DNA of 64,000 nucleotides from an uncultured Nitrososphaerota archaeon (lineage in GTDB: Archaea > Asgardarchaeota > Njordarchaeia > Njordarchaeales > Njordarchaeaceae), in the NCBI GenBank assembly GCA_964518475.1, contig CAZFGR010000005.1:39415-103414 (forward strand). Direction: 5' to 3'. The position numbers and the translations under genes are program-made. This document shows positions 17,009-25,642 of this stretch, in pieces. The notes beneath the pieces are model-generated. The model was given only the letters and a program-made list of their open reading frames with translations. It ran no database searches and had not been told where the DNA came from. The number at the start of each line of letters is the position of its first letter. Within the stretch, counting starts at the first letter, position 1.

Positions 17009-18283
17009 TTACTCATACTGAATTCTACGTGCTATTCCTAAGTCAAAGTATTTATCGATTTTGAGTATGATCCAGAACAAGAAGGTTCCAAAGAAAATCT
17101 CAAGTATGCCCGTCAGGAAGTATCTCATCGCAGCTACTTGCCATGCTGGTATTTCATACTGTCCAGAAGCACCAAATATTGTAAACTCTGCGGTAAGACC
17201 AGAGGAGACATAGCCCCATCCTGGCCATGCCACTCCTACTATTGTTGCACCGAATAACGCGGTCTGTAAAGCAGCTATTAACGCGAAGAATACTCCGCTA
17301 ATGAAGGAGAATATGAATATTTTACGGGGGTTCATTTGGAAAGCGTAAGCTGCGACTATTCCCGCTAATAAGCCAAAGATATCCATTATTGGTATGAAGA
17401 TGCTTACTCTCACGGGTGCTTTAAGTTGAACCCCAGTTAGCCACCAGATAAAGTTAAAGAACAGTTTCTCATTGTCCTTATATTGAATATAGGCGGAACC
17501 GAGACCAGAGAGTGGACGGTCACTAAACATTCTTGAGCTTCCACATACGATAATTTTGCCTTTTCCAGTATCTATTGCGACGAGCCAGGGAAGAGAACCC
17601 CTCGCGTGGGGATTACCATTGGCATCCGCAGCATAAGATGTTGGTGGAGTCGTAGCTACAATAATTTTCGGATCTTTCACAATTAGTGATGCGCTAGTTG
17701 TAACGATTTCTTCGATCCCAACACTTATAATGTGGGGCTTAAAATAGTCGGCTGTAACAACTACTTGCCAGGGTCTTCCAGCAACATTGGATGTATCATC
17801 ATATAACTCATCACCATTATTATTGCTTCCCCAGAATATAACCTTGTCTACTACACCAAGAGAGGCTAGTAGATTATTCAAATAATCTGGTTTTCCATAG
17901 GTGCTGCCATAGTACGCCACATCTCCCAAGATTATTACTCCTTTCCCCGCATCAACGAATTGTTTAATAAGATCCAGCTCCTCAGAACTAAAGTCTTGGG
18001 TTCCAGGATTAGGAATCACTAGGACATCGAATTGTAAGAGCTCTTCTAAGCTAGGTAGAGCTTCGCTTGCATTATATTTCTCCACAACAACTCCTTGACG
18101 GATCAAATCACTTATGAGGGTACTATACAGAGCGGTTGAGTAGTATTGACCAGCACTCTCTCTGAAGATGATTTTTATCTCCGTTTCTTGGGATCTTAGA
18201 ACAGTTTGTGATGGTGCTATAAAGACGCTTAGAAGTAGGAGAAATGCCATAGCGATGAATAATTTCCTCAAAAACATCACCAA
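17009..18283 (-). CDS. Membrane protein with extracellular GIFT/DUF4350-like domain and C-terminal TM helices
   Basis: Signal peptide; FDVLVIPNP...FSSEELDLIKQFVDAGKGVIILGD and DNEKLFFNFIWWL; about 3 C-terminal TMs. Confidence 0.8.
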   Translation of the reverse strand: MVMFLRKLFIAMAFLLLLSVFIAPSQTVLRSQETEIKIIFRESAGQYYSTALYSTLISDLIRQGVVVEKYNASEALPSLEELLQFDVLVIPNPGTQDFSSEELDLIKQFVDAGKGVIILGDVAYYGSTYGKPDYLNNLLASLGVVDKVIFWGSNNNGDELYDDTSNVAGRPWQVVVTADYFKPHIISVGIEEIVTTSASLIVKDPKIIVATTPPTSYAADANGNPHARGSLPWLVAIDTGKGKIIVCGSSRMFSDRPLSGLGSAYIQYKDNEKLFFNFIWWLTGVQLKAPVRVSIFIPIMDIFGLLAGIVAAYAFQMNPRKIFIFSFISGVFFALIAALQTALFGATIVGVAWPGWGYVSSGLTAEFTIFGASGQYEIPAWQVAAMRYFLTGILEIFFGTFLFWIILKIDKYFDLGIARRIQYE

Positions 18284-18331
18284 TAAGTTATATTGCTAAG
18301 AAAAAAATAGAGAAAAAGAAGAATTAATAAG

Positions 18332-24207: not shown

Positions 24208-24346
24208 AATCTCACCAAAATATTAGCTGGCAAGAAAGATAATAGATAACCAAGAATAAAACTTTTTATCCTAGCTTTAAGAAGAGAGAGTTCTTTTCTC
24301 GAAATCCGAAAATAAATAAAGGATTTAGAAAATAGGGAATAAGTCG

Positions 24347-25642
24347 TTAGTACTGGGATGCCTCGCGTATTCTCTCAGCTATTGGTACTGATATGGCTCC
24401 AGCGATGGCGTTTCCTATTGACCACGGAATAACAATCCACCAAAAGACATACTCCCAGAGATATTCTAGACGGTATAGGTTAGGGAAGAATACTGTGTAG
24501 AGGCTAACTTGCATAAAGAAGCCTCTGAGGAGGCCAATTATGAAGCCATCGATTAATCGGAGACCAGGCACGTCGGGAGCTCTTTCGAATTCTTCTTCCG
24601 ATATCCTGAATCTGAAGAATATTGGCTTGTCAGTTAAGACGGCTTGACCCCTCATGAGCAGGTAGAGATCCACTGGTAAACCTTGAGCAAATGGATAGGC
24701 CCACCAGAGCGGATTTAATCCATACCATCCTATCTCTGAGACTATATTATAGATGAAAAGAGTCAGGGATGCTGTTCCAGGCTTTTTAACCAGTGCTATA
24801 GCGGTTATGAGTAACAATATGTATGGGAAGTCCGCTACCGCGAAGTTATAGGCGAAAGGTAACCTATCGGTTAAGGGGAACACGAATTGTCGACCCAAGA
24901 TCTGAACCCATACAGTCATTGCCGCCCCTATCATAGCTATACTAACTAGGTCTAGGGTAGTGAATAATGAGAAGAATCCTACTGCGCCCAAGATCAGTAA
25001 TCCTATGAATACTCCTAATGTAATTCCCATCGTTATGAAGAGTCTAGTTATTGGAGGACGTCTAACTTCGATAGTCTTCTGCAATTCTTGCCATTCGTAT
25101 GTTGGACCAAACTTTACTTTTATCGTAAAAATAACTTTTACAGATTCTACTCCTCGGGGTAACTGTCGTGGTGCATAAATCCGGTACTCAAAGACCCATT
25201 TTTCACCAGGTTCTACACGGGGTATCTTAATATAAGCCCAGTTTCCTATCCATGAACCATTGACTTCTTTAAGAACCTCACCCCCCGGACCAACTAAAGT
25301 TGCTTTGGGGCGATAATCGGTATCGGGTGTAAATGTTATATTAAGATCGCTTTTTCCTATACCGTCTCCCATGATCTCAATATCGGTCCAATTCTGGGTA
25401 GCGGTTTCTGGTAGGTATAGAGTTATTCTCATAGTTAACGAATATTCGCGACCAGCGATCACTACACCGTCCCGAAGAGGCCTGATGGGATTTGTAGTCG
25501 CTGGAAAGTTAATTACTACTTCAGGAGGTTGAGAGGCTTGTGCGTAAATTTGTGCTACGGAGGCGATGACAATAATATCATAGATTAGAAGAGGGATTAA
25601 AAGGATCAGTGCTGCTTTGATAGCTTTTTTCATCGATACCAC
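24347..25642 (-). CDS. ECF transporter S component (YkoE-like) fused to an N-terminal extracellular beta domain
   Basis: C-terminal FTTLDLVSIAMIG...ALVKKPGTA...SEI...AQGLPVDL is typical of YkoE-type S components; preceded by a signal/TM segment and a ~165-aa beta-rich domain. Confidence 0.75.
   Translation of the reverse strand: MVSMKKAIKAALILLIPLLIYDIIVIASVAQIYAQASQPPEVVINFPATTNPIRPLRDGVVIAGREYSLTMRITLYLPETATQNWTDIEIMGDGIGKSDLNITFTPDTDYRPKATLVGPGGEVLKEVNGSWIGNWAYIKIPRVEPGEKWVFEYRIYAPRQLPRGVESVKVIFTIKVKFGPTYEWQELQKTIEVRRPPITRLFITMGITLGVFIGLLILGAVGFFSLFTTLDLVSIAMIGAAMTVWVQILGRQFVFPLTDRLPFAYNFAVADFPYILLLITAIALVKKPGTASLTLFIYNIVSEIGWYGLNPLWWAYPFAQGLPVDLYLLMRGQAVLTDKPIFFRFRISEEEFERAPDVPGLRLIDGFIIGLLRGFFMQVSLYTVFFPNLYRLEYLWEYVFWWIVIPWSIGNAIAGAISVPIAERIREASQY

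Follow-up and report, generated by a model that had tools for sequence, protein, structure and literature searches.

A gene cluster encoding an unusual transporter component is described here. It lies in a 64,000-nucleotide stretch of archaeal DNA (the window), which is part of contig C5 in a 2.33-Mb assembly with a completeness of 91%. Four co-oriented open reading frames (ORFs) on the minus strand at positions 17009–25642 encode a predicted S component of a transporter of the energy-coupling factor (ECF) type with an extracellular domain of its own (p1) and three proteins with GIFT domains (p2, p3 and p4). The GIFT proteins are very probably functional partners of p1. In its folds and gene set, the system is a group-I ECF transporter like YkoEDC, from which the ectodomain and the GIFT partners set it apart. 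The arrangement of the four genes is as given in the original prediction, a short note made from the sequence of the window.

One of the defining features of ECF transporters is that they do not need an extracellular binding protein; the substrate is captured by the S component (PMC5037267, PMC11109136). In a literature search, no published account of an ectodomain-bearing or GIFT-associated ECF S component was found. An ECF system of this kind would be an exception to the rule that these transporters are free of binding proteins. The line between ABC (ATP-binding cassette) importers that depend on binding proteins and ECF importers would blur. Furthermore, a tractable prokaryotic setting for GIFT function would be available. 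To our knowledge, no function has been settled for the GIFT domain since its naming in GldG, IFT52 and OST48.

The S component p1 and its ectodomain

No match to p1 was found in NCBIfam or, at E ≤ 1, in Pfam. Sequence searches of the PDB with p1, with a full-length profile and with a profile of the membrane domain gave no significant match. A protein search returned 44 homologues, mostly from metagenome-assembled genomes (MAGs) of Njordarchaeales and other Asgard archaea, and the membrane-domain profile found just 44 representatives in 1.84 billion proteins. The AlphaFold model of p1 was calculated from 28 homologues (pLDDT 89, pTM 0.79). It consists of an N-terminal helix (residues 4–36), a β-sandwich (41–194) and a helical membrane domain (198–430).

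In a wide search with VIA-align, YkoE (5edl_A) ranks first for the membrane domain with a Z-score of 15.2 and an r.m.s. deviation of 3.4 (171/197 residues). It is followed by 4huq_S (11.3), 4hzu_S (10.5), PanT (10.2), ThiT (10.0), RibU (9.5) and FolT (9.3–9.4); residues 196–428 align to NikM (4m5c_A) with a Z-score of 9.3. For helical bundles, Z-scores up to nearly 13 can arise by chance with this tool. The match to YkoE is trusted because its Z-score is above this level, the domain is covered and the whole S-component family ranks next.

The family links point in the same direction. Distant relatives of p1 without an ectodomain (250–280 aa), which were reached by the membrane-domain profile, are homologous to the membrane domain with an hhalign probability of 99.9. 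Several of them come up to the cut-off of PF09819, and two exceed it (31.1 and 28.1 vs. 25.2 bits). This family, displayed as 'ABC_cobalt', is presumably the YkoE family. The link of p1 to PF09819 is transitive via these relatives, p1 alone being unmatched. Helix 1 of p1 contains the sequence IAMIGA. The pattern [AS]xxxA is present in 13/13 family members and its second alanine is invariant; an AxxxA motif in helix 1 docks S components onto EcfT (PMC11109136). The membrane domain also has an invariant KPG motif. In a weak alignment of the profile of the ectodomain-less relatives with 5EDL (E 2.5), which gives a hint only, KPG pairs with RKPG of YkoE, and Q/E-G of 'FAQGL' lies opposite Gln95-Gly96, a thiamine ligand in YkoE (PMC5037267). 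A counterpart of the thiamine-stacking Trp49 of YkoE (PMC5037267) is not evident in the p1 family in this weak alignment. Judged by its modeled fold, family links and docking motif, p1 is a YkoE-like ECF S component.

For the β-sandwich, VIA-align gave TTHA1873 (7wrk_A, Z-score 12.6) and BcpA (3kpt_A, 11.4), and Gram-positive pilins match with Z-scores of 10–12.6. Foldseek with the whole p1 model returned only sandwiches of the pilin/adhesin type; the S fold surfaced solely in the wide VIA-align search. According to the model, the N-terminal helix is a signal anchor, and either cleavage or retention is possible. Conservation is much higher in the membrane domain, which has a mean column identity of 72% in 13 genomes, than in the ectodomain. 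Thus, the first gene encodes what the original prediction had claimed, a YkoE-like S component with its own extracellular β-domain; the S-component fold of the C-terminal part, on which that prediction had been staked beforehand, is found in the VIA-align comparison.

The GIFT proteins p2, p3 and p4

The three proteins downstream of p1 had been described as GIFT/DUF4350-like. The assignment to GIFT stands: PF23355 (IFT52_GIFT) matches p2 with 50.7 bits and p3 with 62.8 bits (cut-off 27.2), and PF09822 (ABC_transp_aux) matches p3 with 59.1 bits and p4 with 37.7 bits (cut-off 34.7). The second label is not supported, as DUF4350 (PF14258) stays below its cut-off in the GIFT proteins (19.5–24.9 vs. 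30.4 bits). OST48_N (PF03345) approaches its cut-off in p3 only (32.1 vs. 36 bits), and the GldG equivalog TIGR03521 is unmatched (9.2 bits, cut-off 389.85).

Pfam, alignment and transmembrane (TM) segments agree with the five predicted copies of an α/β-domain on immunoglobulin (Ig)-like stalks or TM anchors. The pairwise identity of the copies is 22–40%. The stalk domains are DUF11/CARDB/NPCBM_assoc in p2 (residues 801–890) and two Big_7 domains in p3 (755–925, 71.1 bits). Both proteins are collinear paralogues with 29% identity over ~900 aa (blastp, E 6e-86).

Two motifs, (F/L)DxxH and MG[DNT]W[YH][DQ]YF[DW]P, had been noticed in four of the copies. They are present in both copies of p2 and p3 (Table 1) and degenerate in p4. 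Both were found again in orthologous GIFT domains from distant loci, and DxxH is retained by the p4 orthologues in L032/L033 (L and G numbers designate loci and genomes). In an alignment of 32 GIFT domains from this locus and related loci, Asp68, His71, Gln73, Tyr/Trp74, Trp149 and Tyr152 (p3 numbering) are among the most conserved columns; further conserved aromatic or acidic positions are Asp176, Tyr185, Tyr288 and Trp305. The motifs are not due to chance, because they recur in distant loci and are among the most conserved columns. Their conservation in sequence is a hint of a possible binding site.

The GIFT fold was modeled for p4 only, and the copies in p2 and p3 were assigned by sequence. 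The AlphaFold model of p4 (pLDDT 88, 21 homologues) has its best match in IFT52 (5fms_A) with a Z-score of 23.2 and an r.m.s. deviation of 2.5 for 213 residues, in agreement with the relation to IFT52 that had been expected for the repeat. Human OST48 (6s7o_G, Z-score 21.9), yeast Wbp1 (6c26_B, 20.2) and the C-terminal domain of site-1 protease (17.7) are further matches, and ThuA-like proteins and class-I glutamine amidotransferases align with Z-scores of 11–15. Foldseek also finds the GIFT fold (E 3e-12). The motif sites lie at the sheet's C-terminal edge, after strands 37–42 and 115–119. From the general topology of the fold, the second motif may lie at the position of the nucleophile elbow of class-I amidotransferases.

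In p4, the GIFT domain is followed by three predicted TM helices and an outward hairpin. The membrane part contains the invariant polar residues Asp301, Gln340 and Arg387. No fold-search matches of its own were obtained for this domain (293–413) with the full p4 model. Hydrophobic N-termini and C-terminal anchors are predicted for p2 and p3, and N-glycosylation sequons are frequent (1.5 and 2.2 per 100 aa in p2 and p3, respectively; 0.2–0.7 in cytoplasmic neighbours). The signal and anchor segments together with the excess of sequons fit a display of the GIFT proteins on the cell surface.

Linkage of the S component with GIFT genes

Co-occurrence of the S and GIFT genes in other genomes had also been predicted. 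In a species-level genome collection, a GIFT gene is present in 12/13 informative loci of the p1 family (12/14 in total). Two p1 loci are without a GIFT gene: one ends right after p1 and the other has none in the available 8.8 kb. The p1 family was found in 15 of 301 sampled Asgard genomes, namely the genome studied here (G000), 12 of 13 others of the Njord order, one Asgardarchaeum and G069 from another family. Generic GIFT domains are present in 290 of the 301 genomes. Full-length p4, i.e. GIFT domain and three-TM base, is present in 11, every one of them p1-positive. The MAGs in these counts are incomplete.

In G069, a GIFT membrane protein of 669 aa (family hidden Markov model (HMM), E 1e-20) is encoded directly upstream of the S gene with an overlap of 4 bp. 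The ectodomain of this S protein differs from that of p1. Its GIFT partner (L138, G069:C231, 283–2289) has a C-terminal RDD-type domain (PF06271, 23.7 bits, just below the cut-off) in place of the p4-type three-TM base.

As a control group, 78 metagenomic loci of ectodomain-less relatives were collected (scan with six close sequences), and the 35 loci of at least 9 kb were counted. In all 35, the S gene is followed by a gene for a fused EcfA-A ATPase and then, wherever the contig extends, by an EcfT gene. A GIFT gene was found in 0/35 of these loci (tblastn and GIFT HMM at E ≤ 1), and the same holds for homologues of the phosphodiesterases and the 209-aa membrane protein described below. The GIFT linkage is specific to S components that bear an ectodomain.

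Asgard families without the p1 system (G023, G030, G033, G040, G052 and others) have GIFT proteins of ~325–400 aa, which match residues 1–310 of p4 with E 1e-35 to 1e-59. Possibly, these are the OST48/Wbp1-like proteins of the Asgard catalogues of eukaryotic signature proteins, in which OST48-like proteins have already been listed (bioRxiv 10.64898/2026.10.28.762692).

The genomes in which the system was found belong to Njordarchaeales and a few further Asgard lineages. Named homologues of the proteins of the locus are chiefly from MAGs of Njordarchaeales/Njordarchaeia; a few are labelled as other Asgard, Korarchaeota or 'Crenarchaeota'. A search with the stretch 17009–25642 found matching DNA in sediment and hydrothermal-vent metagenomes.

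ATPase, EcfT and phosphodiesterase genes

Genes for a fused EcfA-A ATPase (A-A), EcfT (T), a 209-aa membrane protein (x209) and two phosphodiesterases (PDEs) lie at 43.6–50.4 kb of the window, 18–25 kb from p1–p4 (Table 1). They were not part of the original prediction. The genome carries six CbiQ/EcfT genes, two of which are inside the window. Assignment of this module to p1 is based on synteny across the loci of relatives, analyzed by tblastn. Two genomes of the same genus (L018/L028 and L027) have the order PDE, PDE, A-A, x209, T, p1, p2(,p3,p4). In another family of the order (L015/L036), PDE, PDE, A-A, x209, T, GIFT, p1 is found. The Asgardarchaeum locus (L016/L032) reads T, x209, PDE, A-A, p4 (divergent), p1, PDE; L033 reads p4 (divergent), p1, T, PDE, GIFT; and L017/L039, which are on one contig, read GIFT, p1, T. 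Altogether, the fused A-A gene is syntenic with p1 in L015, L016, L018, L027, L028, L030–L032 and L036, and the gene for the 343-aa T component adjoins p1 in L018, L027, L028, L033 and L039. The nearest relative (L026, 88% identity) has the same split arrangement as the window. Gene order thus suggests that p1 is served by a dedicated T component and fused A-A module of its own, as in a group-I, YkoEDC-like ECF transporter.

The T component of this module is longer than the other EcfT in the window (343 vs. 235 aa) and has extra N-terminal hydrophobic segments; it may therefore be adapted to the enlarged S component. x209 has no Pfam match. Its interpretation as a second S component related to p1 was ruled out, as BLASTP and hhalign were negative. 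The smaller phosphodiesterase matches bacterial NPP and ENPP4/5 with E 1e-13. In both enzymes the predicted anchors place the catalytic domain outside.

Table 1. Features of the transporter system in the window. Residue numbers of motifs are given in parentheses.
Feature	Position	Strand	Basis
p1, ECF S component, 431 aa (probably 428 from Met4)	24347–25642	-	ORF, AF2 model, VIA-align
p1 residues 4–36, N-terminal signal-anchor helix (model)	25535–25633	-	model helix; hydrophobic segment 12–30
p1 residues 41–194, Ig-like β-sandwich ectodomain (pilin/collagen-adhesin type)	25061–25522	-	VIA-align, Foldseek
p1 residues 198–431, extra helix H0 and six-helix S-component core	24350–25051	-	VIA-align, hhalign
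p2, 939 aa: signal peptide, GIFT, Ig-like region, GIFT, DUF11/CARDB Ig, C-terminal TM	21388–24207	-	Pfam, TM 913–931
p2 GIFT copy a, ~residues 66–320, LDAGH (75) and MGTWHDYFDP (149)	23248–24012	-	Pfam, alignment
p2 GIFT copy b, ~residues 541–800, FDEGH (554) and MGNWYQYFWP (643)	21808–22587	-	alignment
p3, 960 aa: GIFT, Ig-like region, GIFT, two Big_7, TM anchor	18332–21214	-	Pfam, blastp vs. p2
p3 GIFT copy a, ~residues 56–320, FDESH (67) and MGDWYDYFDP (146)	20255–21049	-	Pfam, alignment
p3 GIFT copy b, ~residues 511–760, FDEGH (522) and MGNWYDYFDP (596)	18935–19684	-	alignment
p4, 424 aa: one GIFT (31–290) on 3-TM membrane domain (293–413)	17009–18283	-	Pfam, AF2
Fused EcfA-A ATPase (AA588), 588 aa, two ABC_tran domains	48631–50397	-	Pfam, synteny
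209-aa membrane protein (x209), C-terminal CxxC...CxxC, between A-A and T	47982–48611	-	sequence, TM segments, synteny
EcfT (T343), CbiQ family, 343 aa	46954–47985	-	PF02361 73.5 bits, synteny
PDE584, distant PhnA-like alkaline-phosphatase-superfamily enzyme, membrane-anchored	45082–46836	-	PF01663; PDB match 1ei6; TM
PDE459, NPP-like alkaline-phosphatase-superfamily enzyme, membrane-anchored	43638–45017	-	PF01663; PDB 2gsn, ENPP4/5; TM

A possible mechanism of capture and transfer

The original prediction had proposed a surface complex that captures a substrate and hands it to the S component; it is supported in part, by the S-component fold and the co-occurrence with GIFT genes. In the mechanism proposed here, p1–p4 would make up the half that faces outward in a dedicated ECF-type ABC transporter of group I, similar to YkoEDC. 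p4 and the C-terminally anchored p2 and p3, raised on their Ig-like stalks, would be dedicated extracytoplasmic partners of p1. The GIFT domains would bind an extracellular compound or polymer at an aromatic-rich site, composed of the DxxHxQ[YF] loop that follows strand 1 and the segment G[DNT]W[YH]xYFxP that follows the central strand. The two anchored phosphodiesterases of the NPP/alkaline phosphatase type would then free a transportable moiety. Within the membrane, p4 would dock to the S component; above the pocket, the ligand would be taken over by the p1 ectodomain. Finally, the S component would topple on EcfT, and import would be powered by ATP via the fused EcfA-A. We infer ligand binding by the GIFT domains, the hand-off, the direction of import and the kind of substrate. 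The chance that capture by GIFT, release by the phosphodiesterases, uptake by p1 and import are correct as a whole appears slightly below even.

On a small scale, CbiN offers a precedent for an accessory protein loading an S unit. The outer loop of this accessory membrane protein acts on the pocket of CbiM and is needed for cobalt transport (PMC7689651).

It seems somewhat unlikely that the ECF transporter actually depends on extracellular receptors, such that the GIFT domains capture a scarce compound or a phosphodiester-linked polymer at a distance from the membrane, from which a product trimmed by the phosphodiesterases is passed to the Ig-like lid of the toppling S component. If true, this would be the first defined biochemical function of a GIFT domain, found in Asgard archaea, whose GIFT is structurally nearest, among solved structures, to eukaryotic IFT52/OST48.

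Several observations weigh against the proposed mechanism. Both motifs of p4 are degenerate in this genome (FRESA and LGDVAYYG), and despite this loss p4 is the partner kept most consistently in distant loci. The solved GIFT domains of IFT52, OST48 and the C-terminal domain of site-1 protease work as protein scaffolds. We know of no solved GIFT domain with a demonstrated small ligand. The S component that would topple probably has a tether of two additional helices and an ectodomain. In the window, ~18 kb separate the GIFT and S genes from the A-A, T and PDE genes. The gaps of 139 and 173 bp within the p1–p4 cluster are roomy enough for separate promoters, and p4 and p1 are on different contigs in G007, G008 and G010. 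Finally, the counts of loci and genomes are not independent, because the positives come from perhaps five lineages and many controls from one study.

Alternative roles of the GIFT proteins

The GIFT proteins might bind no substrate at all. In this case, they would organize p1, the phosphodiesterases and perhaps the envelope, and the substrate would enter the S pocket directly; OST48 in oligosaccharyltransferase and IFT52 in IFT-B may be regarded as analogues. Scaffold subunits (IFT52, OST48, Wbp1, site-1 protease) indeed rank highest in the structural comparison with the GIFT domain of p4. A docking role would suit the conserved membrane domain of p4 with its invariant polar residues, and p4 has been kept here even with its motifs lost. 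Against this, four paralogous copies hold the set of aromatic and acidic motif residues in spite of only 22–40% identity, which is more usual for a ligand site, and several copies on long stalks suggest reach and avidity. A purely scaffolding role is unlikely.

As has been proposed for GldG and the GldA/GldF ABC transporter, the ATPase cycle might instead move or remodel the surface via the p1 ectodomain and the GIFT proteins (adhesion, motility or envelope), without any import. ABC_transp_aux, the family of GldG, is above its cut-off in p3 and p4, and the p1 ectodomain resembles pilin and adhesin domains. However, the partner in the membrane, a YkoE-like S component, has the [AS]xxxA motif and belongs to a solute-transport family; TIGR03521 for GldG itself is unmatched, and an ABC-2 permease is not among the neighbours scanned with Pfam. 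Such transmission of force is improbable.

Export is another possibility. The ECF complex would run outward and load a cofactor or ligand onto the GIFT proteins or phosphodiesterases, like EetB/FmnA of Listeria, an ECF system that exports flavin for extracytosolic flavinylation (PMC9973259). Published ECF exporters are encoded beside their extracytosolic clients (PMC9973259), and the flavodoxin-like or class-I amidotransferase-like GIFT fold with its conserved aromatic site would be compatible with a loaded molecule. However, the closest relatives of the S domain are in the YkoE importer family, ApbE-like or other loading enzymes were not seen among the neighbours scanned with Pfam, and there is no pointer to a particular cofactor. 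An outward direction is quite improbable.

A chance neighbourhood, with ordinary surface proteins encoded next to a transporter to which they have no relation, is very improbable and close to refuted by the linkage data: some adjacency is expected from the abundance of GIFT domains in Asgard genomes, and the intergenic gaps permit separate promoters, but the adjacency outlasts changes of order and orientation in several families, the genes overlap by 4 bp in G069, the ectodomain-less loci lack GIFT genes and full-length p4 is confined to p1-positive genomes.

Comparison with known systems

YkoEDC of Bacillus subtilis is a group-I ECF transporter for thiamine/hydroxymethylpyrimidine (HMP), and the structure of YkoE is known (5EDL; PMC5037267). 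The p1 membrane domain is closest to YkoE and shares, in the weak alignment, the RKPG-type motif and the Q-G pair. Both systems have a dedicated fused A-A and a T component of their own, and the ectodomain-less relatives of p1 are encoded in plain S/A-A/T operons. In contrast to YkoE, p1 has two extra helices and an Ig-like ectodomain of 155 residues. It lacks a direct match to PF09819, and an equivalent of Trp49 is not evident in the same weak alignment. Furthermore, the GIFT partners, the small zinc-ribbon membrane protein x209 and the two phosphodiesterases travel with p1.

The metal transporters CbiMNQO and NikMNQO, like the p1 system, belong to group I of the ECF systems and have an S unit with an additional N-terminal helix. 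They include an additional membrane protein with an outward part, which there is needed and acts on the S pocket and here is kept. CbiN comprises ~100 aa with a short loop, whereas the GIFT partners have 424–960 aa. Compared to CbiM and NikM, p1 has no N-terminal Met-His metal site, because its N-terminus is occupied by the anchor and the Ig domain.

The gliding-associated transporter GldA-GldF-GldG likewise combines a GIFT membrane protein with an ABC-type membrane complex driven by ATP, and the PF09822 matches of p3 and p4 are in line with this. The system described here has ECF S, T and A-A components instead of an ABC-2 permease, its proteins do not match the GldG model, and its GIFT copies are placed on Ig-like stalks. 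Among solved folds, the p4 ectodomain comes closest to IFT52, OST48 and Wbp1 (13–20% identity). p2 and p3 match IFT52_GIFT best among the Pfam families and also have the type-I membrane topology of OST48. OST48_N is below its cut-off, the resemblance to OST48 being one of fold only, and the context is a transporter rather than oligosaccharyltransferase or a transport train. The closeness to eukaryotic GIFT proteins may reflect what has been solved, because no solved GldG is among the matches.

arCOG01314 (DUF4350, GldG-like) occurs with MoxR ATPase and vWA proteins in archaea (Makarova et al. 2015, PMC5898192). It is similar in having a signal peptide, an ectodomain like that of GldG and an anchor at the C-terminus, and in being encoded beside Ig-like surface proteins. 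It differs in that DUF4350 is below the cut-off here and the partner is an ECF transporter. MoxR ATPase or vWA genes are not among the neighbours scanned, which include genes for a Clp1-like kinase and a Ras-like GTPase. EetB/FmnA resembles the p1 system in that ECF subunits are encoded with extracytosolic clients; ECF systems can serve surface proteins. Its S component belongs to a different family, and it has neither an ectodomain nor GIFT proteins.

Substrate

Thiamine/HMP was considered as the substrate and is unsupported. ThiC is present in the genome and an Rfam scan of the window found no family, hence no thiamine pyrophosphate (TPP) riboswitch; thus, nothing points to thiamine or HMP. 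PF02581 (ThiE) was not found in the genome (91% complete assembly). Archaea often use ThiN in place of ThiE. The NPP-type enzymes point loosely to nucleotide-containing or other phosphodiester compounds. Their link to the transporter suggests a way in which organophosphate compounds may be acquired by uncultured Asgard archaea in hydrothermal sediments.

Gene arrangement and neighbouring genes

The intergenic gaps p1–p2, p2–p3 and p3–p4 measure 139, 173 and 48 bp, respectively. From this spacing, a single transcript of p1–p4 is plausible. The true starts are probably Met4 for p1 and Met12 for p4, because the database copies have 428 and 413 aa.

Purine-biosynthesis-like ORFs, as we take them to be from their N-terminal sequences only, lie between p1 and the GIFT gene in loci of two Njord-order genomes, L035 (4298–5665) and L037 (10729–13103). 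In L037, a three-gene ABC system is located just upstream of p1.

A gene for a Clp1-type P-loop polynucleotide kinase-like protein (15502–16803, minus strand) adjoins the cluster. It is also a neighbour in L026, L032 and L033, i.e. including two distant loci (37–58% identity). The Clp1-like kinase gene is a conserved neighbour of the GIFT/S locus, and a functional tie is not obvious. On the other side, two genes lie at 25814–27218 on the plus strand: one for a Ras/Arf-like small GTPase of 180 aa, divergent from p1, and, 10 bp further on, one for a 283-aa protein without Pfam matches. This GTPase was not seen next to p1 in the other loci compared.

The second EcfT of the window belongs to an ordinary ECF operon (37340–40348, minus strand), which shows no sequence relationship to the p1 system. 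It encodes an S component of the riboflavin type (PF07155; 257 aa), two single EcfA proteins (271 and 258 aa) and the EcfT of 235 aa. Divergent from this operon, a PALP domain (threonine-synthase-like) fused to a PadR-type winged helix is encoded at 40436–41881 on the plus strand.

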